Shown here: positions 4,053-62,017 of the stretch, one piece after another
Layout of the letters: each line of letters begins with the position of its first letter
Position numbering within the stretch: position 1 is the stretch's first letter
Assembly: GCF_003182475.1 (NCBI RefSeq)
Contig: NZ_QGTS01000001.1
Coordinates: 167,980-231,979, forward strand
DNA length: 64,000 bases
Direction: 5' to 3'
From: Mangrovibacter plantisponsor
Lineage (GTDB): Bacteria > Pseudomonadota > Gammaproteobacteria > Enterobacterales > Enterobacteriaceae
Made by a program: the position numbers and the translations under genes
The notes under the pieces: model-generated
The model's database searches: none
The model's input: only the letters and a program-made list of their open reading frames with translations
What the model was told of the DNA's origin: nothing

Positions 4053-4571
4053 CCACTGTGCGCGTATATCGCTAAGGTTATACGCGCCATTTCAGCACCT
4101 TACCAGGCCAATAATCAGGCAGGAATTATTCTTTTAATTTGTCGATACCCACCACACAAAACACCCAGCCTAACGCATTGATATGTTTTATATTTTTTAA
4201 AACAAATAAAATATTACACTATATTCAATTGCAGGTAAAAATTGCCAACATTAGTTAGCCAGCCGGGAAAATTAAGCAGAATATTAGCACTTGCTTTGAA
4301 GAGAGATTATGGTAGGGTTGATATTAACAACATATTTACACAGGAAAAAACAAGATAACTAAAACACCCATCCTCATTTTAGCACAGTGCAAAAAACCGT
4401 TAAAAATTGATGGCGTTAATTTTGTTTTCACCATCATCCACATGAGCAAAAATCAATAATACGCCTGCTGCATATCAGCGCCGCCGCATTATTGATGTGT
4501 GCTCCAAAAAATCATAAATCCGCTCTGCTATGGCGGAGAATAATATGCACAACATCATAAGGAACCGTTCC

Positions 4572-5579
4572 ATGAAAAAGACCTTTCCTGTTGCACTCAC
4601 CTTAATTTCCACCGTACTGATGGCAACCGGGTCCGCAAAGGCTGCTGACTTACCCGGCAAAGGTGTCACTGTTTACCCTGTGCAAAGCCCACTCCCGGAA
4701 GAATCCTTTCAAACTGAACTGGTGAACCGCGCGCTTGAAAAATTAGGCTACGATGTTCAGCCAACCAAAGAAGTGGATTACAACGTTGCGTATACAGCCA
4801 TATCAGAGGGCGATGCCACTTATATGGCAGTCAACTGGGAGCCGTTACAGAAAGACATGTACAACTCGGCCGGCGGCGACAAGAAGTTTTACCGCAAAGG
4901 GACGTATATTAGTGGTGCCGCACAAGGGTATTTAATTGATAAGAAAACAGCAGATAAATACCATATTACTGATCTCTCACAGCTTAAAGACCCGAAAATA
5001 GCCAAACTATTTGATGCGGATGGCGATGGTAAAGCCGATTTAACCGGTTGTAACCCTGGCTGGAATTGTGGGTCGGTTATTGCCACACAAATAAAGGCAT
5101 ATGGGTTAAGCAATACTGTCGAGCAGAATCAGGGGAACTACTCCGCAATTATTGCAGAAACCCTGACTCGTTATAAAGCAGGCAAACCGGTATTATATTA
5201 TGCCTGGACGCCTTACTGGGTTAGTTTTGTATTAAAATCGGGTAAGGATGTGGTATGGCTCACCGTGCCATTCTCCGCTAATCCTGGCGGGTTAAAAGGG
5301 CTGGATACCACACTGCCAAATGGCAAGAATTATGGTTTCTCCGTTAATAACGAACACATTGTGGCAAATAAACAGTGGGCGGAGAAAAACCCGGCGGCAG
5401 CCAAACTGTTTGCCATTATGAAACTCCCCCTGGCAGATGTGAACGCCCAGAATCTACGGATGCATGAAGGCCAGGACTCAGCACAGGATGTTCAGCAACA
5501 GGTCGATGGCTGGATTAAAGCGCACCAAAGTACCTTCGATGGCTGGGTAAAACAGGCTATGGCTGCCGCGGGTAAATAA
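4572..5579 (+). CDS. proX: glycine betaine/proline betaine-binding periplasmic protein ProX (orphan; no proV/proW nearby)
   Basis: Near full-length similarity to E. coli ProX ([37 protein letters not shown]..). Signal peptide present. Start at Met15 of ORF 4530..5579 behind an AAGGAA motif. Confidence 0.85.
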
Positions 5580-5651
5580 CCTGGTTAATTGTGTTACCCC
5601 CCGCCAACTGCGGGGTAACCAAACTCAGAAAAGGTTACCTGAAGAGTACAA

Positions 5652-5690
5652 CCAGAAAGAAACCCGCGGGTTTCTTTCTGGTTTGTTTAT
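5652..5690. terminator. perfect 15-bp inverted repeat hairpin plus T-tract; bidirectional terminator between proX and the EF-hand gene
   Basis: ccagaaagaaacccg/cgggtttctttctgg followed by tttgtttat. Confidence 0.7.
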
Positions 5691-5727
5691 GTACCACATA
5701 CCACTGTGTATCACCGTATCGCGAATA

Positions 5728-6000
5728 CTAACGGTGGGCAGCGACAAATGATTCAATCTGCGCCTGAGTGATACTGCCCGTACCCTGGGTATCAATTTCA
5801 CTAAAATGCTTCGCCACCATCGGCATACCCGCCTGCGCTTCTTGCAATGTCAGCTTACCATCATGGTTGGTATCCGCTTGTGAAAACCGCTGAGCCAATC
5901 TTGCAGATTGAGTGGCAGCAACAGCCAGTGTGGTACTGCCAGCCAGTGTGGTACTGCCAGCCAGTAACAACCCGGCCATTAAAAATGTACGTATTTTCAT
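5728..6000 (-). CDS. small secreted EF-hand calcium-binding protein
   Basis: Signal peptide. Canonical EF loop DTNHDGKLTLQE plus a second degenerate loop DTQGTGSITQAQ. 90 aa. Confidence 0.7.
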   Translation of the reverse strand: MKIRTFLMAGLLLAGSTTLAGSTTLAVAATQSARLAQRFSQADTNHDGKLTLQEAQAGMPMVAKHFSEIDTQGTGSITQAQIESFVAAHR

Positions 6001-6319
6001 TGTAGCATCCTTTTATTTTCGCAGAATTGCGGCGCTATTTATTCACCACAATTTTATTTATGGTTACCAGAATAAAATTATGTCACCTGATGTCGCCATG
6101 AATAAAACCAGTGACATGCCATGACATAATTCACCACTTCTGAAGTATGGAAAATAAAAATAGAATAATCAGTGCAGAGCAAACTATGGCCAACTGAGCA
6201 CCACAAGCCATTATTTTCGGTAATAAACTTTTGGTAATAAATACAGCCCACACACAGCAACCACTTAATTATCAACCTAAAAACTGAAATTCATTATTTA
6301 TTAATAAAGGCTTAGCACG

Positions 6320-6748
6320 ATGAATAATAAATCAATGAATAATAAACGATGCCAGCAGCTTATCGGTGTCCTGGGGTTATTATGCACTTTTTTAACCGTG
6401 GCACCCAGGCTTATGGCTGAAGAGCCGGAGCACATCAACCTGGTTTCTCCTGCCAGGCTGGTTATTATTACCCCGGCACATCCCCCGCGTTTGTTAGTGG
6501 CAGCACCACCTCCTCCTGTAGGCTCCAGAATGCCCCGTGGAATGTATTGGAAACCCAGGCCCCCTCATGGGCCTTCTCAGCCAGGCCATCCCGGGCAGCC
6601 AATGGCACCCAATGGGCAACCAGGAATGAAACAGCAACAACCAGGGCAACCGGGAGGTTCGCCGCAACAACCCGGGCAGCCACAACAGCCAGAAGGCGCG
6701 CCACAACAAGGTGAGCCGGGGTATGTTGCTCCAGCCACACATGCCTGA
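6320..6748 (+). CDS. secreted Pro/Gln/Gly-rich low-complexity protein of unknown function; first gene of the efflux operon
   Basis: Signal peptide (..APRLMA-EE). C-terminal PGQP/QQP repeats with scattered His/Met. 15 bp upstream of the MFP gene. Confidence 0.5.
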   Translation: MNNKSMNNKRCQQLIGVLGLLCTFLTVAPRLMAEEPEHINLVSPARLVIITPAHPPRLLVAAPPPPVGSRMPRGMYWKPRPPHGPSQPGHPGQPMAPNGQPGMKQQQPGQPGGSPQQPGQPQQPEGAPQQGEPGYVAPATHA

Positions 6749-6763
6749 GGAACGGTAACGATA

Positions 6764-7951
6764 ATGCAGTGGCCTGTTACTCTCAAACAAACGTTACTCA
6801 ATAACGCGGGCAAAATCAGCGTGCTTTTGCTGCTGGCTGCCATGCTGTGCACTATTGGGTATCTGTTACCTAAACGCACCCAGGTGTTTCGCCCAACGCG
6901 TGAAGTCCTGCACCAGTCATTCAGCGGCGCAGGCGAAATGGCAGCACTTAACCAGGCACAACTGTCCAGCAAAACGCCATTGCGCCTGCAGTCTCTGCTG
7001 GTTGATACGGGCGATAAAGTCAAACGAGGTGAACTCCTTGCCCAGTTTGATGACCAGGAGCTGCAGGCAGATGAGCAGGCAGCCAAAGCCGCCCTTGATG
7101 GAGCAGTGAGTAGTGAAGCCGCGGCACACACCAACTGGCTGCGCCAACAGCATATTGAGCAACAGGCCAAAGATGATGACCGCCGCGCACATATTCTGGC
7201 CCGCACAGGTAAAGGCGCGATTTCACAAAGCGACCTGGAAAATGCCAAAACCAGCCTGCAGACAGCCCAGCTAGACCTGGCGTCAGCCCGGTTCCAGTGG
7301 CAGCAGGCACAACACGCCCATACAGAGGCACAGGCACAATGGCGCGCCGCTCAGTCGCGCCTTGCGGATACCCGAATGGTGGCGCCATTCAGCGGCTTAA
7401 TTACCGGCAGAAAGTGCAGTGAAGGCGACATTATCTCCCCCGGCACAGCCTGTATTGAGTTAACCGATACTCAATCGCTGTACATCAGTGCACGCTTTGA
7501 TGAATCAGTACTGGGCACCATCCAGGTGGGTGACAGTTGCGAGGTTTTTCTGCGCTCACACCCGAACCAGGCCCTGCACGGCTATGTGGAGCGGATAAAC
7601 CGCAGCGTAGACAGCGACACGCGCGAATTCACCGCCAATATTGGGTTACCGGCCCTGCCCCCTGGCTGGGCGCTGGGTGAGCGAGCGGTTGTAGTTCTTC
7701 ACCACACCAGTGCGCAGCCTGTGCTTACCCTGCCAGAGCACCTGCTCACCCATGCAAACAGAGAAACCTGGGTTTGGTTGCTGGACAAAGGGCATGCGGT
7801 CTTGCGCAAGGTGCAAATTGGGCAACACACCGAACAGGCCAGTGAAATCACACAAGGGGTAACACCAGACAGCCTGGTACTGCCACCGGCCCACTACCGC
7901 CCCGGGCGGCGTATCAGCCCGGTCAGGAGCGAAGATGAATCTCGCGATTAA
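6764..7951 (+). CDS. efflux periplasmic adaptor / membrane fusion protein (HlyD family)
   Basis: N-terminal TM anchor, coiled-coil region rich in Q/A, C-terminal beta-barrel-like region. Overlaps the permease gene. Confidence 0.75.
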   Translation: MQWPVTLKQTLLNNAGKISVLLLLAAMLCTIGYLLPKRTQVFRPTREVLHQSFSGAGEMAALNQAQLSSKTPLRLQSLLVDTGDKVKRGELLAQFDDQELQADEQAAKAALDGAVSSEAAAHTNWLRQQHIEQQAKDDDRRAHILARTGKGAISQSDLENAKTSLQTAQLDLASARFQWQQAQHAHTEAQAQWRAAQSRLADTRMVAPFSGLITGRKCSEGDIISPGTACIELTDTQSLYISARFDESVLGTIQVGDSCEVFLRSHPNQALHGYVERINRSVDSDTREFTANIGLPALPPGWALGERAVVVLHHTSAQPVLTLPEHLLTHANRETWVWLLDKGHAVLRKVQIGQHTEQASEITQGVTPDSLVLPPAHYRPGRRISPVRSEDESRD

Positions 7952-9074
7952 AGACATTCGCGCGGGTCTGTTTCGCTTTACGCTAACCTGCGTGGGGATT
8001 GGTTTAATGCTGATGACATCGCTGGCTATGACTGGGTTGTATCAGGGGATCGTGGCAGATGCATTGTCCATTATTGACCACGCCCATGCAGATTTATGGG
8101 TAATTGAAGCCGGAACCGAAGGCCCGTTCGCCGAAAGCTCACTCATTGACCGCAGCGTACTGAGCCGTTCTCTGGCCTTACAGGATGTCGCAACCGCCCG
8201 GCAGTTTACCTTGCAATCAGAGCGTTTCAGCGTGCACGGTAAAACAGTGCGCGCATCACTGGTTGGGCTGGATTACCCAACAGATACCGGCAGCACTATT
8301 CCATTATCCGCAGGCCGCCACCTGCGTGCCGGGCGCAATGAAGCCATTGCAGACCAAAGTACCGGCCTGCATACCGGTGACACACTGCGCCTCGGCACAA
8401 CAGATCTCACCGTGGTGGGTGTGGCAAAGAACTACCAGGACTACAACGGTAACCCCATGGTTGCTGTGTCGGTTAATGATGCGCTGGATATCCAGGCTCA
8501 TCGCCCGGAAGAAAGTGTGTATATCTCGCGCGATACCGGGCGCGTCCAGGTGCCCAGTAAAACAGCTAATATTGCCGCAGTCCTGTTAACTCTGGTCCCC
8601 GGTGCCAACCTGCAGCAAGTGCAGCAACAAATAAACCGCTGGGGAGACGTTATCGCTCTGACCAGCGAACAGGAGCGAGAAGTCTTTTTGTATGGCAGGC
8701 TGGAGCGTTTACGGGGCCAGATAGTACTGTTCACAGCCATTTTACTGGTAGTAACCGCCGTTGTAATTGCGGTGACGCTCTACACCATGACACTGGAGAA
8801 ACTCCACGAAATTGCGCTCCTCAAACTGATTGGCGCGCGCAACCGTGTCATCATCAGTATGATTTTACAGCAGTCTATTGCTCTGGGTGCTCTGGGTTAC
8901 ACCATGGCAGCCGTGCTCATTCCCGTGGTATCACCTTTCTTTCCACGCCGCCTGGTACTGACACTCAATGATTACCTGCTGTTTGCAGTTATTGTTTTGC
9001 TGTTATGCATTGTTGGAGCGTTACTCGGTATCCGCCGTGCCATGCAGGTAGAAGCACGTGAGGTGCTGTCATGA
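7935..9074 (+). CDS. ABC transporter permease, FtsX/MacB-like (4 TM, large periplasmic domain)
   Basis: Topology TM1, ~220-aa periplasmic domain, then 3 TM, typical of DevC/LolC/MacB-type permeases. 4-nt overlap with the ATPase gene. Confidence 0.8.
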   Translation: MNLAIKDIRAGLFRFTLTCVGIGLMLMTSLAMTGLYQGIVADALSIIDHAHADLWVIEAGTEGPFAESSLIDRSVLSRSLALQDVATARQFTLQSERFSVHGKTVRASLVGLDYPTDTGSTIPLSAGRHLRAGRNEAIADQSTGLHTGDTLRLGTTDLTVVGVAKNYQDYNGNPMVAVSVNDALDIQAHRPEESVYISRDTGRVQVPSKTANIAAVLLTLVPGANLQQVQQQINRWGDVIALTSEQEREVFLYGRLERLRGQIVLFTAILLVVTAVVIAVTLYTMTLEKLHEIALLKLIGARNRVIISMILQQSIALGALGYTMAAVLIPVVSPFFPRRLVLTLNDYLLFAVIVLLLCIVGALLGIRRAMQVEAREVLS

Positions 9075-24068: not shown

Positions 24069-24539
24069 TCCCCTGCTCCCCCTGTCAATTTTTGACTGGT
24101 TGGTTAAGTTTCTCTTGGTTATGCCATTTTTGTGCCAGAGTGAAAAACCGCAAGAACACAGCACGTTTAAAGCAATTGGCGGCAGGATATGAACTTTTAT
24201 TGACCATATGTGGTGCAAAAAACAGCAGAGTTGCTTTGTGATGGGGCAAGGAAAGTACGTGGGCAATAAAACTGTGGTCAGGGCTGCCCAAAAAGTGATG
24301 AAAAAGGCAGCAACTGCCATCCTATAAAAGGCTCGCAGTTGCAGTTAGTGACAGATGCCCACAACCGCTGTGGCAGTTGGTGGAAAAACCAGCAAAAATA
24401 CCGTCATGGCTATCAGAATGACTAATATCTGTAGCCCGATGCTGAACATTCTTTCTGCCAGAACAGCAACACTGGCATAACCGGCAAAAAACGGTATGGT
24501 TTGCTGATGAAAATTGTTGATGACTTTCAGGAACTCCCC

Positions 24540-30618: not shown

Positions 30619-31404
30619 TTACCCCATTACCGTGCGGTACAGCAGGCTGTCGAGCGCCCCTGTTTTACCCGTTGCGCTCAGGGGTAATTCCGGTGGGATT
30701 TCCCCTCTTGCCAGTTCGTGTTCAATAAACGCATGCAAGTGCTCCCTGCGCGGGCCATACCCGGCTTCCCCGGTGCGCTGTTTAATTTCCAGTAACTGGT
30801 CTATTTCTGCCAGAAGGCTGGCATCAGTAACTGTTTTTGCCAGTAATTCGCGGAACAGTACGGGTGGTTGCCCCAGCCCGGCCTCAATCCAGCGCACTGC
30901 CAGTAAAGGCCGCAGCACATAAAAGTACTTTTTCAGTCGTACCGAGTCACCCTGCAAATAACCGCGAAAGTTTTTGCGCGCCATTGAGTAATAGTGCCAG
31001 CGAGCTCTGACAGGTGAAAACCAGTCTGGTTGCTGTGCACGCAACTCGGCCATCACACTTTCATCCTGCTGGTAAACCACCGGGGAGTTCAGCCATTCGA
31101 GCAATGTAGGGTTGGCGGCTTTTAATAGCCCCAGTGCTTTGCGCCACTCCCAGCCACTGACATCCAGCTCATCATCAATGGGAAGCTCGATGACATCGCG
31201 TTGCGGTTCAACCCGCAGGTACCACTCAGCCGGGTGAACATATAAAAACCGGACATCGTAGTCGCTGTCTGGTGAGGCAAAGCCCCACCCACGGCTCCCG
31301 GATTCACAGGCATAAAGCACTTTCACCCCAAACCGGCTTTCTACAGATTGTAATGTGTGCCGCACACGGCTTTGCATGGCGGCGTCCACTGCTAATATTG
31401 CCAT
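30619..31404 (-). CDS. pol-beta superfamily nucleotidyltransferase (RlaP/PF10127-like predicted NTase)
   Basis: Start at Met14 behind GGAG. NTase motif YACESGSRGWGFASPDSDYDVRF (hG[GS]...D.D). About 32 bp downstream of the SPFH gene. Confidence 0.7.
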   Translation of the reverse strand: MAILAVDAAMQSRVRHTLQSVESRFGVKVLYACESGSRGWGFASPDSDYDVRFLYVHPAEWYLRVEPQRDVIELPIDDELDVSGWEWRKALGLLKAANPTLLEWLNSPVVYQQDESVMAELRAQQPDWFSPVRARWHYYSMARKNFRGYLQGDSVRLKKYFYVLRPLLAVRWIEAGLGQPPVLFRELLAKTVTDASLLAEIDQLLEIKQRTGEAGYGPRREHLHAFIEHELARGEIPPELPLSATGKTGALDSLLYRTVMG

Positions 31405-31435
31405 TTTCTTCTCCTTTTTGTGGCCTGTTGCCGGG

Positions 31436-32566
31436 TTACACATTAATTTTCACTAAACCCTGTAATACCTGGTCCAGCCCGCCAAATACTGAAATTTTAT
31501 CAATACGTTCAGCCACTTTTTCCAGGGTTTCCATTTCTTTAAGCCGCAACGCGACCGGGTTGTTTTCCATCACTTTGGCTGTATTCAGCAAAGATCGGGT
31601 TGCTGCTGTTTCTTCACGACGGCGGATGACATTTGCCTGCGCTGATTTTTCCGCTTCCACCAGCCGGGTTAAAATCGCCTTCATATCACCAGGCAAGATA
31701 ATGTCCTTCACACCGACAGACGCAATTTCAATACCAAAGAGAGCCAGCCGCTGTGTTACCTGCTCACCCACGATGCCGTCCAGCACCAGTTTGTCTTCCA
31801 ACAATTCGTCCAGTGAGCGGGTTCCCACGGCCTGGCGCAGCGCGAACTGGACTTCGCGGTACAGGTATTCCAGTGGCTTAGTCAGTTGAGCAAATGCGCT
31901 CAATACATCCTGGTAGCGCCAGTTCACCGCCATATTCAGGCGAATGCTGACTTTATCTTTTGTCAGGATCTCCTGGCCGCTCACTTCCAGCGCCTGTAAG
32001 CGCATATCCACCACTTCGGCTTCCACCTGGTGGTTTACCTTCCAGTACGCATGAACGCCGGGTGGTAACAGTTCCTGGGTTACACCATCTATTTTCAGTA
32101 CCCCAGTATGCCAGGCAGGGACTTGTACGCTCAGCACAAGGTCGCGGCCTTTAACCGCTGCACTACCAGTGCGTGATTTCACCAGCAGGTTTTGCAGCGC
32201 TTCTGGCAACTTCACATCCTGAACTTCTACGCGTTCCAGGCGTAATGCGCCCTGGTTCTGCCAGTACAGACGGCGCGTTGAAGGGGGAATCAGTGCCTGT
32301 AACACGCCATCGCAGTACAACACACCCACTTCATCTTCACCGGTGTCTGCTTCCAGGCAATAACGCGCCACCCACTCGGGTTTGTAGTGGCGTAAATAGC
32401 CACTGAGTTCATCATCCACCATGCTGCCATCCAGTTTTATCAACTGCACTTCGGCAGCCGAAAACCAGGGTAAACGGTGCTGGCCCGCTTCCAGAATTTT
32501 TTCAATTTCTTCGTGTTGCGCCAGCAAACCAATCTGACCTTTCCGTATTGTGATTTTTTTAGCCAT
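31436..32566 (-). CDS. SPFH/band-7 (slipin-like) domain protein with a unique ~150-aa N-terminal domain; no TM segment
   Basis: Start at Met27 behind AAGGAAA. C-terminal half matches SPFH cores (..IRLNMAVNWRYQDVLSAF.. ..RLALFGIEIASVGVKDIILPGDMKAIL.. ..EAEKSAQANVIRRREETAA..). Confidence 0.75.
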   Translation of the reverse strand: MAKKITIRKGQIGLLAQHEEIEKILEAGQHRLPWFSAAEVQLIKLDGSMVDDELSGYLRHYKPEWVARYCLEADTGEDEVGVLYCDGVLQALIPPSTRRLYWQNQGALRLERVEVQDVKLPEALQNLLVKSRTGSAAVKGRDLVLSVQVPAWHTGVLKIDGVTQELLPPGVHAYWKVNHQVEAEVVDMRLQALEVSGQEILTKDKVSIRLNMAVNWRYQDVLSAFAQLTKPLEYLYREVQFALRQAVGTRSLDELLEDKLVLDGIVGEQVTQRLALFGIEIASVGVKDIILPGDMKAILTRLVEAEKSAQANVIRRREETAATRSLLNTAKVMENNPVALRLKEMETLEKVAERIDKISVFGGLDQVLQGLVKINV

Positions 32567-32733
32567 GTTGTTTTCCTTTTTCTTAATACCGGTGCAACCA
32601 CGGATGCAGGGGCGAAACCGCAGGGGAAACGTTGTTTTGCCCACGGCCCGGCACCATTACCGGTGGTTGCCTGGGGGCTACTCCATACTGGCTGTAACCC
32701 GTTGTACTGCGAAAGTTGTTTCACTCATTCAAT

Positions 32734-32810
32734 GTGAGGTGCGAACCCAGGAATCGAACCTGGCATGACCGACTTTTCGCTAATGCCGTTCTGCTGGCGG
32801 AACACACCCC
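32734..32810 (-). ncRNA. tRNA-like element (canonical T-arm plus acceptor-like helix) inside the ~310-nt leader of the SPFH/NTase transcript; candidate Y-RNA-like module or tRNA remnant
   Basis: Minus-strand CCAGG-TTCGATT-CCTGG (32763..32747) is a textbook T-stem/T-loop. Flanking GGGGUGU (32810..32804) can pair with GCACCUC (32742..32736), giving a ~77-nt tRNA-sized unit. D and anticodon arms are degenerate and there is no encoded CCA. Confidence 0.4.
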
Positions 32811-32890
32811 GGATAACGACCGTATCGTTCCTGGTGCGCTGGCGGAGAGTTATTAACTCCGGCAATTCCAGCATGCTGACGTAGATAACA

Positions 32891-32907
32891 TTGCCAGTTC
32901 CGTGCCA
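32891..32907 (-). promoter_or_regulatory. sigma54-type -24/-12 promoter (TGGCACggaacTGGCA) pointing away from rtcR toward the SPFH/NTase unit
   Basis: Minus-strand 5'-TGGCACGGAACTGGCAA-3' has GG and GC at the canonical 10-bp spacing. About 140 bp from the rtcR start, mirroring the rtcR/rtcBA arrangement in E. coli. Confidence 0.55.
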
Positions 32908-33043
32908 AAAACCAGAAAAGCGCAAAATAAATTCATAACCAATTGAAAAATATATTATTTATAATATAAAAGATGAATATCACTTGTTCGCCACCAGGCA
33001 TTTTTATATCCTTATTTATCGTATTTTATCTTTTGGGATAAAC

Positions 33044-34627
33044 ATGAATAAACGCCGGGTTGTGATAGGTGTACTGGGAACTGAACTGGACAGGCGAGGA
33101 AAACGCGCCAACCGGATGAAAAAGTGGCGCCCGACTGTTGGGTTGTGCATGCAGGAAGACATGCCGGTTGACCGACTGGAATTATTACACCAGCCCACAG
33201 ATATCAACCTGGTGTCTGCGGTGCAGCAGGATATTCAACAGGTTTCACCAAAAACGACGGTAAACACCCATGCTATTGCGATTAATGACCCGTGGGATTT
33301 TGAAGAGGTGTATGCCGCATTTCTCGATTTCGCCACACACTACCCGTTCGACACCGGGCATGAAGAGTACCTGGTGCATATCACCACAGGTACACATGTG
33401 GCACAGATTTGCTGGTTTTTGCTAACCGAGGCCCGCTACCTGCCCGCCAGCCTGTTACAAACCAGCCCGGCCAAACGCCAGGGAGATGAACCGGTTTCTC
33501 CCGCAGGCACCTGTTCCACAATTGACCTCGACCTGAGCCGTTACACTAAACTCACCAGCCGCTTTCAACATGAACAGCAGGAGTCGGTGTCATTTCTGAA
33601 ATCTGGCATTGAAACCCGCAATGCAGACTTTAACCGGACTATCGACCAGATTGAGCGGGTGGCACTGCGTTCATCTGCACCGGTATTGCTTACCGGGCCA
33701 ACCGGTGCCGGGAAGTCGTTTCTGGCCCGGCGTATTTACCAGTTACGCCAGGCCCGCCATTTAGTTAAAGGGCAGTTTGTCGCCGTGAACTGTGCAACTT
33801 TGCGGGGCGATAACGCCATGTCTGCGTTATTCGGCCATGTGAAAGGAGCCTTTACTGGTGCGCTACAGGCCAGAAGTGGCTTGCTACGTGAGGCCGACGG
33901 CGGCGTTCTGTTTCTGGATGAAATTGCCGAACTGGGGCTGGATGAACAGGCAATGCTTCTGAAAGCTATCGAAGAGAAAACGTTTTTCCCTTTTGGTTCA
34001 GATAAAGAAGTCCACAGTGACTTCCAATTGATTGCCGGTACGCACCGCAATATGCATGAATGGGTGGCTCAGGGCCATTTCAGGGAAGATTTATTCGCCC
34101 GTATTAATATGTGGACGTTCCGCTTACCTGGCCTTGCTGAACGCCGGGAAGATATCGCGCCAAATATTCGTTATGAGCTGGAGCGCTATGCCCGCGACCA
34201 CCAGGCACAAATTCGCTTTGATAAAGAAGCGCTCACCCGCTACCAGAATTTTGCCTGTTCAGCCGGAGCACAGTGGCGCGGTAACTTCCGCGAGCTTGGC
34301 AGCTCAATCGCTCGCATGGCAACCCTTGCAGAACAAGGGCGCATTACGGAATCACTGGTAGATGAAGAAATTGCCCGGCTGCAGGCAAACTGGAACCCTT
34401 CTGCACATTCAGCGCCGCCATTACCCGTCGATATCAGCCAACTGGATGTGTTCGACCAGCGCCAGTTAGAAACTGTAATTGAGGTTTGCCGGCGGTCCGC
34501 AACCCTTTCCCAGGCCGGGCGAGAATTATTTGCCGTATCACGGCAGAAAAAAGCCAACCCAAATGACGCCGACCGGCTTCGCAAATACCTGGCGCGCTTT
34601 GGGCTCAATTGGGATGATGTGAAATAG
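33044..34627 (+). CDS. rtcR: sigma54-dependent transcriptional regulator RtcR (CARF-like N-domain, AAA+ sigma54 activator domain, C-terminal HTH)
   Basis: Alignable along its whole length with E. coli RtcR (..KWRPT..LC.Q.....DRLELLH.. ..NPWDFEEVYA.. ..THVAQICWFLL.EARYLPA.L.Q.SP.. ..DLDLSRY.. ..GPTGAGKSFLARRI..Q..QARH.. ..GAFTGA.. ..DADRLRKYLARFGL.W..). Start at Met21 of ORF 32984..34627. Confidence 0.9.
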   Translation: MNKRRVVIGVLGTELDRRGKRANRMKKWRPTVGLCMQEDMPVDRLELLHQPTDINLVSAVQQDIQQVSPKTTVNTHAIAINDPWDFEEVYAAFLDFATHYPFDTGHEEYLVHITTGTHVAQICWFLLTEARYLPASLLQTSPAKRQGDEPVSPAGTCSTIDLDLSRYTKLTSRFQHEQQESVSFLKSGIETRNADFNRTIDQIERVALRSSAPVLLTGPTGAGKSFLARRIYQLRQARHLVKGQFVAVNCATLRGDNAMSALFGHVKGAFTGALQARSGLLREADGGVLFLDEIAELGLDEQAMLLKAIEEKTFFPFGSDKEVHSDFQLIAGTHRNMHEWVAQGHFREDLFARINMWTFRLPGLAERREDIAPNIRYELERYARDHQAQIRFDKEALTRYQNFACSAGAQWRGNFRELGSSIARMATLAEQGRITESLVDEEIARLQANWNPSAHSAPPLPVDISQLDVFDQRQLETVIEVCRRSATLSQAGRELFAVSRQKKANPNDADRLRKYLARFGLNWDDVK

Positions 34628-47400: not shown

Positions 47401-48549
47401 CTAAATATTCTGGTTCAGAACAACAGAGCCATAAGTCGGTTCGAAACGTGCCTCGCTTAACATCCGGATTGAAGCCGATAATGCGCTTTCCTGATGCGGA
47501 CTATTCAGGCCCGGTATTTCCGTCACAACCATTTGAGTCAGCGTATTACCGCTGCCCTGGCTACGAACCCCACGCCGTTCTTCCCGGGGAGGAACACCAA
47601 GATGTTCACGGTAACACTTACTGAAATGCGGCGTTGAAACAAACCCGCAGGCCAGCGCAATTTCTATAATTGACATTGATGTTTGCTTAAGCAGCTGTCG
47701 GGCACGAAACAAACGCAGTTTCATGTAATAGCGAGATGGCGAGCAATGCAAATACTTTTGAAACAACCGCTCCAGCTGACGACGGGATAACCCAACATAT
47801 CCTGCCAGTTCGTCCAGGTCGATGGCTTCTTCAATGTTTGCTTCCATTAATGATACCGCTTCGACCAGGCCTGGTTGAGCTGTACCAAGTACATGGCGTA
47901 AAGGAATACGTTGATAATCTGACTCATTGCGCACACGGTCGCAAATGAACATTTCAGAAATCGCGGCAGTAAGTTGGTAACCAAAATCCCGATGAATCAT
48001 GGTGAGCATCATGTCCATTGGCACGGTGCCGCCACTGCTGGTCATTCGGTCACGTTCAATAACAAACAGTTGATTGGTACAAATCACTTTGGGGTAAGCT
48101 TCCTGCATGGAAGCAATACATTCCCAGTGAGCACTGCAGTGATAACCATCAAGCAGCCCTGCTTCAGCCAGTAAATAAGGCCCGGTACACACGGCTCCGA
48201 TAAGTATTTTTCTGCGTGCCAGCCCCTGTAACCAGGTTACCTGGCGCACACTGTAGCTACGGGTAATATTGACCCCACCCACAACAATCAGTACATCCAG
48301 TGCCGGTACATCAGCCATGGAGTGATCGGGGGTAATAGAAATACCATCGCTGGCCATAACGGCACCGCCGTCTTCACTTACTGTGCACCAGTTGTATAGA
48401 TCTCGGGCACTCAGTTGATTAGCCATGCGCAAAGGTTCAACAGCCGTTGCAAGGGCTATCATTGTGAAATTATTCACCAATAAAAAACCGACAGTGCGTT
48501 TTTTTATGTTTTCAGAGGAACTCTTATGAACGGTGTTCAAGTCGAACAT
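47401..48549 (-). CDS. gbdR: AraC-family regulator with N-terminal DJ-1/PfpI (GATase1-like) domain, GbdR-like
   Basis: N-terminal class-I glutamine amidotransferase-like domain and C-terminal AraC HTH (..LSRRQLERLFQKYLHCSPSRYYMKLRLFRARQLL..IALACGF..HFSKCYR..). Confidence 0.7.
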   Translation of the reverse strand: MFDLNTVHKSSSENIKKRTVGFLLVNNFTMIALATAVEPLRMANQLSARDLYNWCTVSEDGGAVMASDGISITPDHSMADVPALDVLIVVGGVNITRSYSVRQVTWLQGLARRKILIGAVCTGPYLLAEAGLLDGYHCSAHWECIASMQEAYPKVICTNQLFVIERDRMTSSGGTVPMDMMLTMIHRDFGYQLTAAISEMFICDRVRNESDYQRIPLRHVLGTAQPGLVEAVSLMEANIEEAIDLDELAGYVGLSRRQLERLFQKYLHCSPSRYYMKLRLFRARQLLKQTSMSIIEIALACGFVSTPHFSKCYREHLGVPPREERRGVRSQGSGNTLTQMVVTEIPGLNSPHQESALSASIRMLSEARFEPTYGSVVLNQNI

Positions 48550-48870
48550 TTGCGCTAACCTCTATTATGCTTCACTGAAAGAACGAAAACGGTACATTGC
48601 TCTGAATCGTTTTCCATCACTTACAGAATAAGCAACAGACGTGCCATTTGTCGTTCACATAAACGCATTTAAAATGACACGCAGTTAACATAATGGGCGC
48701 AAATGTCACAAATCAGAATATATCGATCCTCCTTATAGGTTGGTCAGCCCCAGGATCGCCAATACAGTGCAAAAACTGATTCATTTTGGATATCCCCCCT
48801 GTTTTTTGCACTATTAACGCTCTTCTGGCGTTCACCGCTCAGACTGTTTTACCAAACTCAACAGTTTTTC

Positions 48871-53538: not shown

Positions 53539-56500
53539 ATGAGCCAGAAAAATCGTCTGCCATCTGGTGGCAGAATAGACCGTTCCAGAGCACTGAAATT
53601 TATGTGGAATGGCCGCCAGTATACCGGATATGAAGGTGACACTGTTGCCTCTGCTCTGCTGGCAAACGGTGTGGATATTGTCGGGCGGAGTTTCAAATAC
53701 AGCCGCCCCCGAGGGATTGTCGCAGCCGGAGCAGAAGAGCCAAATGCTGTATTACAACTGGGTGCGACAGAAGCCACTCAGGTGCCAAATGTAAGAGCAA
53801 CCCAGCAGTCACTTTACAATGGGCTGGTATGCTCTGCGACAAACGGCTGGCCCAGCGTAGAATCAGACCTGATGGGGCTGGTAGGCAATATCGGTGGCAA
53901 AATGATGCCTCCGGGGTTCTACTATAAAACATTCATGTACCCACAATCCATGTGGCCAACTTACGAGAAATTCATTCGTAAAGCTGCCGGGCTGGGTCGT
54001 GCTCCGCGTGAAAAAGATCCCGACACCTACGATGTAATGAATCAGCACTGCGATGTGATGATTGTTGGTGGTGGGCCTGCAGGATTAATTGCTGCACTGG
54101 TTGCTGCACGCAGCGGCGCACGCGTGATTCTGGCAGACGAGCAAAATGAATTGGGCGGGCACCTGCTTTCCAGCCGGGAAACCATAGATGGTAAACCTGC
54201 CGCAGACTGGGTGGCAGACATTGTCTCTGAGTTATCCGGGCTGCCTGAAGTCACTATTCTGACGCGTTCTGTCGTGAACGGTTACCACGACCATAACTTC
54301 CTCACCATCAACGAGAATAAATCAGATTTCCAGGGCGACCGGGCTTTGTCGGGTAAAGTTCGCCAGCGTATGCACCGTGTCCGGGCTCACTGGGTTATTC
54401 TTGCGACTGGTGCCCAGGAACGCCCTCTGGTTTATGGTAACAACGATGTCCCTGGTTGCATGGTGGCATCAGCTATATCAACCTATATCAATCGCTATGG
54501 TGTTGTGCCTGGCAGCCAGTTGGTGCTGATGACCACTAACGATAGCGCTTACCAGACGGCGCTGGACTGGGCTGATGCCGGTCGTGAAGTCATTGCTGTC
54601 GTGGATACTCGCGCCAACCCACAGGGTGAGCTGGCGGCAATGGCGCGTAAACGCGGCATCCGGATTATTACCGGCAGTGCAGTGATTGATGTTCAGGGCA
54701 AAAAACGCGTCTCTGGTGTGACCATCGCCAGTATCGATAGCAAAGGTGATGCCGTTACCGGCAATATCTCTACACTGCGCTGTGATACTGTCGCCAGTTC
54801 AGGCGGCTGGAGCCCGGTGGTTCACCTCGCCTGCCATACCGGCAGCCGGCCGGTTTGGAACGATGAGGTGATTGGTTTTCTCCCCGGGCCTACCCGCCAA
54901 AAACAGATCACGGCGGGAGGAATTAATGGCCAATATGCGCTAAGCAGCGTGTTACTGGAAGGCATTGAAGCCGGGCAAAATGCCGCCGCTAATTTGGGGC
55001 TGACTCCTGGCGAAATAGTGCTTCCGGAGGTGAAAACCTGGCGCGAAGACAAACCCGCAGCCCTGTTTTACATTCCGCATACTAAGCCGATTAGCCGTGC
55101 TCCCAAGCAATTCGTTGACTATCAGAATGACGTGACTGCCGCTGGCATTGCTCTGGCGGCACGTGAAGGTTTTGAAGCCATTGAACACATTAAGCGTTAT
55201 ACCGCAATGGGCTTTGGGACCGACCAGGGGAAACTGGGTAACATCAATGGCATGGCCATTGCTGCCAGAGTCATGGGGAAAAGCATTCCTGAAACCGGCA
55301 CTACCGTTTTCCGCCCTAACTACACGCCAATAGCATTTGGCGCGATTAGCGGGCGTAACTGTGGGCCGCTGTTCGAACCGAAGCGCTTCACTGCCATGCA
55401 TAAATGGCACGTGCAACATAACGCAAAATTTGAAGATGTCGGCCAATGGAAACGCCCGTGGTATTACCCCAAACCAGGCGAAACCATGCAGCAGTCCCTC
55501 GACCGGGAATGCCGGGCTGTGCGTTCAGGCGTTGGCATTCTTGACGCTTCCACTCTCGGTAAAATCGATATTCAGGGTAAAGATGCCCGTGAGTTTCTCA
55601 GCCGTGTGTACACCAATGCATGGGCGAAGCTTGGCGTTGGGAAGTGCCGCTACGGGCTGATGTGTGGTGAAGGCGGCATGGTGTTTGACGATGGCGTCAC
55701 CTCCTGCCTGGCGGAGAACCACTTCCTGATGACCACCACCACCGGGGGCGCGGCTCATGTTTTAGAGTGGCTTGAACTCTACCACCAGACTGAATGGCCT
55801 GAATTAGAGGTATTTTTTACCAGCGTCACTGACCACTGGGCAACCATGACTATCTCCGGGCCGGACAGCCGGAAATTACTGTCAGAACTGTGCCTGGATA
55901 TCGATCTGGATAAAGACGTCTTCAAATTTATGGACTGGCGCGAAGGCACGGTGGCTGGTGTACCGGCTCGGGTGTTCCGTATTTCCTTCACGGGTGAACT
56001 GTCATTCGAAGTTAACGTTCAGGCAAACTACGGATTGCACGTTTGGGAAAAACTGTTTGAACACGGTGCCAAATACAACCTCACGCCCTATGGCACGGAA
56101 ACCATGCATATCTTGCGTGCCGAGAAAGGGTTCATCATTACGGGCCAGGATACCGATGGTTCAGTCACCCCGCTTGATCTCGGTATGGGGTGGTGTGTCG
56201 CAAATACCAAACCTTTCAGTTATATCGGCAAGCGCGGCATGGCCCGGGAAGATTGCGTTCGCGAACAGCGCAAGCAACTTGTTGGTCTGAAAACACGCGA
56301 CCCGATGACCGTTCTTCCGGAAGGGGCGCAGGCAGTGGCAGACCCGAAACAACCGGTTCCAATGGATCTGCTCGGGCATATCAGCTCAAGCTACTGGAGT
56401 GCCAACCTTAATCGCAGTATTGCGATGGGATTTATCAAAGGTGGCCTGGATCGTATGGGAGAAACCGTTTACTACCCGCTGGCTGATGGCCGGGTGATCG

Positions 56501-60133: not shown

Positions 60134-62017
60134 ATGCAGGCTGAGTATCAGGAAATCATAGATTTTCTCCGTCGCTACCCGCCTTTTAACGATCTGCCCG
60201 ATGTCGCTCTGGCCCGGATTGCCAGCAACATTGAAGTCAGCTATTTCAAGGCAGGGACCCAGATATTAACCTTTGGCCAACAAGTCGATGCCTGGTATGT
60301 GATTCGCAGTGGCTCTACCGAGGTATACCGCCGTAATGGTGATCTGTATAACCGCCTGAGTGCCGGGGGTTACTTTGGGCAATTTGGTTTATTACGGGAA
60401 AACAGTGTGCGCTTCCCTGTTACGGCACTCGAAGATACGCTGGCCTATTTAATACCTGCTCAAATTTTCCACGAATTATTTGAAAAGTACGAACATTTTG
60501 CAGATTTAGTAGAAGTAGAAGACAGAACCCGCCTGCGGCAAACCATCGCGCGCAATGAAGATGCTAACGGCCTGCTAAGCTCCCCAATTGAAACGCTCAT
60601 CAGCAGACCCCCGGTGACTGTTGAAGCAATGGAGACAGTGCGCGACGCAGCGTTAAAAATGAGTGCTGAAGGCGTGTCATCACTGTTGATTCTCTTACCT
60701 TCAGACACTAACCCGGCACCAGAGAACACCAAACTGGTCGGTATTGTAACGGACAAAGACTTACGTGATCGGGTGATTGCTCGCGGGTTAAGTTATACCA
60801 CGCCGTTGTCCAGTATCATGACATCGAAACTCATTCATGTTGAGCATTCGCAACTCGTTTTTGAAACCATGATAACCATGATGCAGCACAATATTCACCA
60901 TTTGCCTGTGCTGAAAAATGGCCAGCCCGTTGGGGTAATTTCGCAGTCAGATATTATTCGCTATGAGTCTCAAAACAGCCTGTTTATTGTCAGCCGAATT
61001 TTCCATTGCAACAGCACTGAAGAGCTCAGCGCACTGAAAAACGAAGTACGGGCCTGTTTTACGAGAATCGTGCGGGAAGATGCAAACTCCCAGATGATTG
61101 GGCGCGCGATGGCAGTTATTGCACGTAGTTTTATGCAACGTTTGCTGGCTCTTGCTGAAGAGGCGCTTGGCCCGCCTCCGGTGCCCTATTGCTTCATCGG
61201 GATGGGGTCAATGGCCCGCCAGGAACAATTACTGGTGACTGACCAGGATAATGCACTGATCCTCGACAACCGTTTCAACCCGACACGCCATGATGCCTAT
61301 TTCATGGCACTGGCTAAATTTGTCACCGATGGTCTGGCCGCTTGTGGTTACCACTATTGCAAAGGCAATATCATGGCAACCAACCCCCGCTGGCGACAGC
61401 CGCTTCATGTGTGGGAAAGTTACTTTGAAGAGTGGATTGACAGCCCTTCTCCACAAGCGCTACTGGACAGTGCCATCTTCTTTGATTTGGATGGTGTATG
61501 GGGAAAAGTGGAATGGGCTGAACACCTTAATTTATTTATTACTCGGAAAGTACGCCACAATTCCCGCTTTCTTGCCTGTATGGCACGTAATGCCTTGCTG
61601 CGTAAACCGCCGCTGGGATTTTTTAAAAACTTTGTGATGGAACCTTCCGGGCAGCATACTCAGTCTATTGATATGAAACGGCGAGGAACGGCACCTTTGT
61701 CTGATCTTGTCCGGGTTCATGCGCTGTCCGTTGGCTCAATGGCGCATAACTCTTTCGATCGCCTGAATGATGTTATTGCTGCTGATATTCTGCCTAACGG
61801 CCGGGGGCAGGATCTGCGTGACTCGCTGGAGTTCATTTCGATGGTACGTATTCGCCACCAGGCGCAGGATGTGGAAGCAGGCCAGAATCCGGACAATAAA
61901 ATTGAGCCGTTGAATTTATCTGATTTTGAAAGAAAAAATCTTAAAGATGCGTTTCAGATCCTGAGCAACGCACAGAAGTATCTCAAGTATCGCTACCAAC
62001 CCGGAAGAAAAGTTTGA
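60134..62017 (+). CDS. cyclic-nucleotide-binding / tandem CBS / DUF294 nucleotidyltransferase signalling protein
   Basis: N-terminal cNMP-binding fold, two CBS domains, NTase motif GMGSMARQEQLLVTDQDNALIL, DUF294_C-like tail. Confidence 0.8.
   Translation: MQAEYQEIIDFLRRYPPFNDLPDVALARIASNIEVSYFKAGTQILTFGQQVDAWYVIRSGSTEVYRRNGDLYNRLSAGGYFGQFGLLRENSVRFPVTALEDTLAYLIPAQIFHELFEKYEHFADLVEVEDRTRLRQTIARNEDANGLLSSPIETLISRPPVTVEAMETVRDAALKMSAEGVSSLLILLPSDTNPAPENTKLVGIVTDKDLRDRVIARGLSYTTPLSSIMTSKLIHVEHSQLVFETMITMMQHNIHHLPVLKNGQPVGVISQSDIIRYESQNSLFIVSRIFHCNSTEELSALKNEVRACFTRIVREDANSQMIGRAMAVIARSFMQRLLALAEEALGPPPVPYCFIGMGSMARQEQLLVTDQDNALILDNRFNPTRHDAYFMALAKFVTDGLAACGYHYCKGNIMATNPRWRQPLHVWESYFEEWIDSPSPQALLDSAIFFDLDGVWGKVEWAEHLNLFITRKVRHNSRFLACMARNALLRKPPLGFFKNFVMEPSGQHTQSIDMKRRGTAPLSDLVRVHALSVGSMAHNSFDRLNDVIAADILPNGRGQDLRDSLEFISMVRIRHQAQDVEAGQNPDNKIEPLNLSDFERKNLKDAFQILSNAQKYLKYRYQPGRKV

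Follow-up and report, generated by a model that had tools for sequence, protein, structure and literature searches.

In a 64 kb stretch of the Mangrovibacter plantisponsor genome (hereafter the window), the region from 30619 to 34627 contains three open reading frames (ORFs): rtcR, a divergent gene for an SPFH/Band-7 protein, and rlaP, which encodes an RNA nucleotidyltransferase. This locus is probably a derivative of an RtcR- and sigma54-controlled RNA-repair operon of the Band-7 type, from which the gene of the RNA ligase RtcB was deleted in the Mangrovibacter lineage. As reconstructed from related loci, the ancestral order would have been a leader noncoding RNA (ncRNA) with a tRNA-like element, SPFH, RtcB and RlaP, facing rtcR. 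The initial annotation of the window had proposed that the SPFH protein, the tRNA-like RNA and the nucleotidyltransferase replace the RtcB ligase and RtcA cyclase in a combination not characterized before. Neither proposal survives comparison: relatives carry all of these parts plus rtcB in one operon, and the combination is the accessory set of the described Band-7/b7a-tRNA type of RtcB operon (bioRxiv 10.1101/312249). The placement of RtcB beside a Band-7 protein and a predicted tRNA associated with band-7 (b7a-tRNA) is credited in the same preprint to Burroughs & Aravind (2016, NAR 44:8525). Since SPFH, tRNA-like RNA and RlaP are established accessories of RtcB operons, the window is better read as a secondary deletion of rtcB than as an unrecognized module; its parts are known already, and its peculiarity is that the ligase is gone. 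The genes and the elements between them are as follows.

33044..34627, + strand: rtcR, encoding a CARF-domain sigma54 enhancer-binding activator of 527 residues
32908..33043, no strand assigned: AT-rich intergenic stretch that separates rtcR from the sigma54 promoter of the divergent unit
32892..32907, − strand: sigma54 -24/-12 promoter, TGGCACGGAACTGGCA, of the form TGGCACG-N4-TGGCA
31436..32566, − strand: SPFH/Band-7 gene, encoding a cytoplasmic protein of 376 residues, in which β-repeats at the N-terminus precede an SPFH domain and long C-terminal helices
31405..31435, − strand: SPFH–rlaP spacer of 31 nt, the presumed rtcB-deletion junction, with the 3' part AAAAAGGAGAAGAAA-ATG
30619..31404, − strand: rlaP, encoding a Pol-beta-superfamily RNA nucleotidyltransferase of 261 residues counted from M14

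The identities of the three genes agree with the initial annotation, which had called them an RtcR ortholog, a cytoplasmic SPFH protein and an RlaP-like Pol-beta nucleotidyltransferase. RtcR matches the RtcR/CARF family (Pfam PF06956, E = 1.7e-81), Sigma54_activat (PF00158, E = 3.7e-50) and AAA_lid_14, and its score of 833 bits against the NCBIfam equivalog NF038308 (cutoff 650) indicates full-length, equivalog-level similarity; it thus combines an N-terminal RtcR/CARF domain with a sigma54-interacting AAA+ domain. The Band_7 domain of the SPFH protein spans residues 148-319 (Pfam, E = 5.6e-27). RlaP matches PF10127 over profile positions 1-234 of 249 (E = 5.6e-94, 314.9 bits) and has the Pol-beta hG[GS]…DxD motif and a third acidic residue. 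An antibiotic nucleotidyltransferase, the identity that had been named as damaging to the proposal, is ruled out, as RlaP is the sole significant Pfam family. The absence of RtcB, RtcA and Ro60 was also borne out: with the E. coli K-12 proteins as queries, tblastn returned no RtcB or RtcA match in the 64 kb window, and Pfam scans of the flanking and longest window ORFs found no TROVE/Ro60 among the long ORFs.

Synteny carries the argument for a deletion. In the closest rtcB-carrying relatives (Citrobacter, K. aerogenes, [Enterobacter] lignolyticus, Cedecea and Chania; about 70% identity), rtcR faces SPFH–RtcB–RlaP, an arrangement found in the Providencia loci and most Xenorhabdus loci too; in Snodgrassella, Gilliamella, Neisseria and Vogesella, rtcR faces SPFH–RtcB. 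Loci in which rlaP comes straight after SPFH are confined to Mangrovibacter (the window and locus L001), Pseudocitrobacter cyperus (L002) and K. michiganensis/oxytoca (L084/L085), the last forming an rtcB-less cluster, P0117, of 489 member sequences. The initial annotation had allowed that relatives might carry a canonical unit beside the same rtcR, with the SPFH and nucleotidyltransferase genes as an unrelated insertion; rtcB is indeed present there, but the two genes are integral parts of the operon. The absence of rtcA is not peculiar to the window, as it is missing from all related Enterobacterales loci too.

The junctions and trees suggest how often the ligase gene was lost. In rtcB-carrying relatives, rtcB takes up 1227 nt at the position of the spacer, and the ends of SPFH and rtcB alike read AAAGGATAA, with 4-6 nt and an ATG after it, which amounts to a direct repeat flanking rtcB (at 7113-7136 and 8345-8369 of L082, and likewise in L088, L089 and L090). 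The SPFH–rlaP spacer of K. michiganensis (L084) and Pseudocitrobacter (L002) measures 5 nt, as a deletion between the repeats would leave, and the repeat could have offered a route to the precise deletion of rtcB in these two lineages. The 3' part of the 31-nt Mangrovibacter spacer resembles the junction of rtcB end and rlaP start in rtcB-carrying loci. Trees built by neighbour joining from RtcR, SPFH and RlaP put Mangrovibacter in a sister position to the Citrobacter/Klebsiella group and nest K. michiganensis and Pseudocitrobacter among rtcB-carrying lineages. Because both the tree placements and the junctions differ (31-nt versus 5-nt spacer), rtcB appears to have been lost independently at least twice.

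What was left behind has been maintained. The RtcR and SPFH proteins are 96% and 97% identical, respectively, to their counterparts in Mangrovibacter yixingensis, and between these two rtcB-less genomes the ratio of nonsynonymous to synonymous substitution rates (dN/dS) is 0.054 for rtcR, 0.057 for SPFH and 0.060 for rlaP, at dS values of 0.23-0.34. The catalytic motifs of RlaP, GS…DxD (GSRGWGFASPDSDYD) and DDELD, show no variation in rtcB-carrying or rtcB-less lineages. Owing to the low dN/dS and the invariant motifs, the remaining genes can be regarded as kept by selection: by these measures, all three appear to have stayed under strong purifying selection after the loss of rtcB and not to be decaying. 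The sigma54 promoter is identical in the two species, and the pairing of the leader hairpins described below is retained between them.

The proposed placement of the divergent unit behind a sigma54-type element was confirmed. The element has GG at -24, GC at -12, the right spacing and an orthologous position; none of its core bases varies in the 17 Enterobacterales leaders aligned (alignment A1), a match was located in 22/22 related Enterobacterales leaders examined, and its distance to the T arm is conserved at about 130-150 nt in the leaders that have one. Within the window, the sigma54 pattern occurs four times against 0.39 expected. The three further exact matches to TGGCAC-N5-TKGCW lie at 48631..48646, 24122..24137 and 53772..53787, all on the − strand; that at 48631..48646 stands about 80 nt upstream of an ORF at 47401..48549 (−) and may be a sigma54 promoter. 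The -12 element is altered to TCGCA in two related loci (L008 and L010). The intergenic region at 32908..33043 presumably harbours candidate upstream activating sites for RtcR and the promoter of rtcR; a scan of it gave a single sigma70-like match, at 32983..32954 (−), no better than chance. In Providencia stuartii NCTC11800 (L010, 5932-7505) and Xenorhabdus vietnamensis (L017, 5889-7453), tblastn aligned RtcR as two adjacent segments, a possible frameshift.

Downstream of the promoter, the SPFH gene is preceded by a leader of about 315 nt, in which the following elements are found.

32842..32863, − strand: leader hairpin 1, GCCGGAG…CUCUCCGC
32798..32841, − strand: long leader hairpin 2, whose 3' strand ends in the conserved GUGUUCCG
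32738..32781, − strand: tRNA-like minihelix, with an acceptor-like stem GCGAA/UUCGC, an 11-nt linker, a T arm and an ACC tail
32747..32763, − strand: T arm CCAGG-UUCGAUU-CCUGG, within the minihelix
32594..32670, − strand: structured 3' leader domain, with an inner helix P4 lying inside a long-range helix P1 (GCAACCAC/GUGGUUGC)
32571..32578, − strand: Shine-Dalgarno region of the SPFH gene, AAGGAAAA, with AAGGA before the start codon conserved in relatives

Covariation indicates that the leader combines two hairpins with an acceptor/T-arm minihelix and a closed 3' domain. In an alignment of 23 Enterobacterales leaders (A5), hairpin 1 has eight pairs, five of them with compensatory changes and 94% of cells paired, and hairpin 2 has 16 pairs, 12 compensatory, with 97.5% paired. 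Taken together, 96.3% of cells are paired, compared with 35-56% in slid controls; compensatory changes occur in 17/24 pairs, and 0/500 shuffles reach the observed covariation score. For the 3' domain, MAFFT sets the P1 helix in three registers, which makes column covariation unusable, and P1 was evaluated by a per-sequence helix search with shuffle controls. P1 comprises 7-13 base pairs whose sequence is unrelated among Mangrovibacter, most Providencia and Xenorhabdus, and in 12/33 loci it is matched by fewer than 2% of shuffles. RNAalifold gives an inner helix of 14 pairs, ten of them compensatory. The unpaired motifs GGCARAA (GGCAAAA in the window), UUUCCCC and UUCGCC of this domain are conserved and recur as far as Orbales and Neisseriales. 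No published description of the flanking leader domains, the hairpins and the 3' domain, was found in the literature searched.

The 3' domain may adopt more than one fold. Across the window and L003-L018 and L082-L090, several species have overlaps among the P1 strands, the inner helix and a local hairpin, which makes these pairings mutually exclusive; an inner hairpin, 'P2', noted by eye, overlaps both P1 and P4. In the Citrobacter/Klebsiella group, a U-tract comes after the 3' strand of P1. The overlapping pairings and the U-tract could be signs of control by attenuation or termination, or mark where a separate ncRNA has its 3' end. A consensus scan for intrinsic terminators, with the end of the leader as the site of interest, found none on the coding strand in the window.

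The tRNA-like element predicted initially is present in a reduced form: the leader is structured, but there is no cloverleaf. A covariance model, R1, built from 43 b7a-tRNAs reaches 13.4 bits (E = 0.24) at 32738..32781 (−), where only the acceptor stem and T arm align and the D and anticodon arms count as deletions. The same truncated form is found in Xenorhabdus leaders at 17-25 bits, and the T arm alone is detected in the Citrobacter/Klebsiella group and some Providencia; the leaders of L008, L010 and L015 gave no R1 match to the element. The acceptor stem covaries between species (GCGAA/UUCGC, UCGAA/UUCGA and UCGGA/UCCGA). The window element appears to be a truncated relative of the b7a-tRNA, an acceptor/T-arm minihelix. 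A genuine tRNA in the leader was ruled out, as ARAGORN found no tRNA gene in the window and Rfam RF00005 had no match at the gathering threshold or at E<=10; known RNA families were likewise ruled out, Rfam yielding nothing at the gathering threshold and nothing relevant at E<=10.

Beyond Enterobacterales, the element is more complete. In most of the loci from other orders, ARAGORN reports, 210-570 nt upstream of SPFH, a tRNA-like gene with erratic 'anticodons', and several of these genes reach the Rfam tRNA threshold. The full b7a-tRNA cloverleaf is present in Neisseriales, Orbales and Burkholderiales. Vogesella and Polaromonas have a similar minihelix ahead of a full b7a-tRNA, Neisseria has an extra T arm at the position of the window minihelix, and Ottowia and L063 each have two full copies in tandem.

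The SPFH protein is cytoplasmic, as first proposed, but its N-terminal domain is not novel. It shows the order that defines the SPFH superfamily, an SPFH α/β domain followed by long coiled-coil helices. No transmembrane segment was found (the maximal 19-residue Kyte-Doolittle value, 1.58, falls inside the SPFH domain), and the membrane anchor typical of stomatin, HflK/C and flotillin is absent, the N-terminus consisting of two β-repeat modules.

32360..32566, − strand: N-terminal β-module 1 of the SPFH protein, residues 1-69
32138..32359, − strand: N-terminal β-module 2 of the SPFH protein, residues 70-143

Residues 1-69, 70-143 and 144-225 align with one another as homologous repeats of one β-module (hhalign probability 85-92%, E ~1e-6), and the N-terminal 143 residues therefore appear to repeat the opening module of the SPFH domain two more times rather than to form a new fold. 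An AlphaFold2 model built on an alignment of 59 homologs has a mean predicted local distance difference test (pLDDT) score of 82.8, and its longest structural alignments are to major vault protein. The modelled architecture resembles that of major vault protein, and a fold of this kind would probably form a large ring or cage scaffold. The family is widespread: species-representative genomes gave at least 502 confirmed loci, and about 7,900-8,000 of the 8,000 scored database candidates were matched in each protein search.

Longer SPFH genes, of about 1530-1560 nt compared with about 1130 nt, occur in Xenorhabdus, Snodgrassella, Gilliamella, Orbus, Neisseria and others (L012-L019, L021-L024, L026, L027, L029-L032, L034, L036, L037, L039 and L052). 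Their products are some 145 residues longer, the N-terminal β-repeat region being duplicated again (query residues 1-190 match twice), and database SPFH proteins of 509-591 residues agree with this extra duplication.

RlaP, short for 'RNA ligase-associating Pol-beta', is named for the location of its genes in RNA-ligase operons, and the enzymes of P. fluorescens and P. aeruginosa add one or two nucleoside monophosphates (NMP) to RNA 3'-OH ends in vitro, with a preference for damaged RNA (bioRxiv 10.64898/2025.12.29.696909). By analogy, the window enzyme would add 1-2 NMP to RNA 3'-OH ends as well, which fits the action on RNA 3' ends expected in the initial annotation. Its start is most likely M14 (31404), and the in-frame ATG upstream at 31443 is probably unused, because relatives have 261-262 residues and start at the position that corresponds to M14; counted from M14, rlaP is separated from the SPFH gene by the 31-nt spacer and does not overlap it. 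RlaP had no sequence match in the PDB. The X. vietnamensis locus (L017) gave no RlaP match.

These components suggest a pathway in which induction, RNA processing, SPFH oligomerization and substrates are what we infer. In Salmonella, tRNA fragments arising from RNA damage bind the CARF domain of RtcR (PMC7790460), and fragments produced in the same way would be sensed by the CARF domain of the window RtcR. RtcR would then activate the conserved promoter at 32892..32907. The transcript would start with a structured RNA of ~290 nt, in which covariation supports the two hairpins, the acceptor/T-arm minihelix and the closed 3' domain, and it would encode a soluble SPFH protein, from its fold a probable ring or cage scaffold like other SPFH proteins and the vault shell. 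It would also encode RlaP, which may extend RNA 3'-OH ends by one or two nucleotides, as the Pseudomonas homologs do in vitro. With no ligase in cis, the products might be passed to a ligase encoded elsewhere, or the module might by itself heal, tag or sequester RNA ends.

Several points weigh against deriving the window from an RtcR-controlled RtcB operon. The dependence of the unit on RtcR and sigma54 is argued from position and conservation; the R1 match of the minihelix is weak when taken alone (E = 0.24), although it lies at the syntenic position. Folded as a single sequence, the leader is no more stable than its shuffled versions (z = -0.95), and the case for its structure consequently rests on the comparison between species. 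The Band-7 protein and its associated RNA are presented in bioRxiv 10.1101/312249 as being without experimental study, and their roles as scaffold and cofactor are conjectural. Finally, the 3'-OH product of RlaP is no substrate for RtcB, as the authors of the RlaP preprint themselves point out (bioRxiv 10.64898/2025.12.29.696909); this mismatch affects even the ancestral pathway and makes plausible a function that is not strictly coupled to RtcB.

Different accounts can be given of what the retained parts now do. Another rtcB elsewhere in the genome, whether in a canonical rtcBA unit or as a paralog, might still be fed by SPFH and RlaP, so that only the location of the gene has changed. We hold this to be possible rather than probable: RtcB paralogs are common, several SPFH loci in metagenome-assembled genomes (MAGs) have a second, divergent RtcB with 29-30% identity to E. 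coli RtcB, and the strong purifying selection on SPFH and rlaP is as expected of a pathway that is still complete, but neither RtcB nor RtcA occurs within the 64 kb window and the same loss has taken place in at least two lineages. Such repeated loss, with SPFH, rlaP, promoter and leader structure retained, would also fit a module in which the SPFH cage, the structured RNA and RlaP are self-sufficient under RtcR and rtcB is dispensable, for example in repairing or tagging tRNA 3' ends or in sequestering damaged RNA or ribotoxins by a tRNA decoy. The chemical incompatibility of the RlaP 3'-OH product with RtcB points the same way, as do the many beta- and gammaproteobacterial MAG loci with SPFH and b7a-tRNA in which tblastn found no match to E. 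coli RtcB or the window RlaP within ±8 kb. Nevertheless, rtcB is kept between SPFH and rlaP in most Enterobacterales relatives, and the roles of the SPFH protein and the RNA are conjectural, which makes us rather doubtful of this account. Its boldest form, which we judge unlikely, would have SPFH, the tRNA-mimicking RNA and RlaP constitute a ligase-independent, cytoplasmic, vault-like ribonucleoprotein (RNP) cage, induced by RtcR, for capturing damaged tRNA or ribotoxins and for the repair or tagging of RNA 3' ends, with RtcB an optional part repeatedly shed by several Enterobacteriaceae.

The locus might also be a decaying remnant, its genes and RNA non-functional since the loss of rtcB and on the way to becoming pseudogenes. 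The tRNA-like element has shrunk to a minihelix here and to the T arm alone in the Citrobacter/Klebsiella group and some Providencia, it went undetected in L008, L010 and L015, and the RtcR matches are split in L010 and L017. Decay is nonetheless very improbable, and we rejected it on dN/dS: all ORFs are intact, dN/dS is ~0.055 at dS 0.23-0.34 between the two Mangrovibacter species, the catalytic residues of RlaP are invariant, and the promoter is identical and the hairpin pairing kept between these species. A secondary deletion of rtcB from a Band-7 type operon remains our preferred reading.

The value of the locus lies in its ligase-less background, in the selection on its accessory parts, and in the new leader domains and the repeat architecture of the SPFH protein. 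Least understood among the parts of bacterial RtcB operons are the Band-7 protein and the RNA that goes with it, both predicted in 2016. That study, by Burroughs and Aravind, reportedly counts 'SPFH/Band-7 modules', together with 'a novel tRNA-like molecule', among putative scaffolds or cofactors. Ligase-less operons under purifying selection indicate that the accessory parts are useful without an adjacent ligase. Mangrovibacter, Pseudocitrobacter and the clinically relevant K. michiganensis/oxytoca offer natural ligase-less backgrounds in which SPFH, the tRNA-like RNA and RlaP can be studied, and such strains could help to resolve the mismatch between the 3'-OH product of RlaP and the 3'-phosphate substrate of RtcB. 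The newly delineated RNA domains of the leader and the vault-like order of the SPFH domains also provide concrete constructs for RNP reconstitution.

The genomic surroundings of the module vary. Its neighbours on the two sides are DUF3750 and DUF817 genes in the window (Pfam scans); Citrobacter, Klebsiella and Cedecea have it flanked by an SBF-like transporter gene and lysC-pgi. The modules of [Enterobacter] lignolyticus and Chania adjoin a phage-type integrase, a partial tRNA-like match, an IS1 transposase and ParA/DnaB-like genes (L088, 1-2126 and 1574-1630; L090, 8181-11128), which suggests that they are carried on mobile islands. A nucleotide search returned no complete E. coli genome with similarity to the region. 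Elsewhere in the window, 60134..62017 (+) encodes a 627-residue protein with cNMP-binding, CBS and DUF294 putative nucleotidyltransferase domains, a second gene of nucleotidyltransferase type that is unrelated.

Among known systems, one likeness is to the cyanobacterial long tRNA arrays (L-arrays), which are linked to an HNH endonuclease and RtcB (PMC8421152). The likeness concerns distant SPFH relatives, as proteobacterial MAG loci combine 7-19 tRNA genes with SPFH, HNH and RtcB; the window differs in having neither a tRNA array nor an HNH gene, and no mention of a link between SPFH and L-arrays was found in PMC8421152. In many beta- and gammaproteobacterial MAG loci without RtcR, a same-strand array of 7-19 tRNA genes precedes the SPFH gene (L025, L035, L041, L043-L046, L053, L055, L058, L064, L065, L068, L069 and L079; positions ~4200-7700), and in L053 and L058 further tRNAs, an HNH endonuclease and a 469-residue RtcB paralog come after the SPFH gene. 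Another likeness, in architecture, is to the eukaryotic vault particle. Major vault protein consists of β-repeat domains, an SPFH-like shoulder and a cap helix and has an associated vault RNA; the window protein shares with it the predicted N-terminal β-repeats, SPFH domain and long helices, is likewise soluble, and has a small structured RNA adjacent to it. However, it has only two repeats and no sequence kinship beyond the SPFH fold, which makes this an analogy and not a membership.

Other known systems are operons under RtcR control. E. coli rtcR–rtcBA has the orthologous RtcR and the divergent, sigma54-dependent layout, but the window lacks RtcB and RtcA, and E. coli lacks the SPFH gene, RlaP and the long structured leader. 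The RtcR-controlled rsr-yrlBA-rtcBA operon of Salmonella also pairs a putative RNP scaffold with a tRNA-mimicking ncRNA (PMC7790460; bioRxiv 10.1101/312249). It couples them to RNA-repair enzymes, its scaffold being Ro60, with Y RNAs alongside, and its YrlA having a tRNA-like domain, whereas the scaffold of the window is SPFH rather than Ro60/TROVE and neither ligase nor cyclase is present; no Y-RNA or YrlA-type family matched the leader in Rfam at E<=10. An SPFH protein embedded in an rtc locus is known as PaFlo8 of P. aeruginosa (PMC13086221). Apart from the missing rtcB and a tRNA-like RNA that is a minihelix here and a full cloverleaf in other orders, the window shares with the Band-7/b7a-tRNA RtcB operon the divergent rtcR, the sigma54 promoter, the structured leader with its tRNA-like T arm and the gene order, together with orthologous SPFH (55-71% identity over the full length) and RlaP (45-74% identity).

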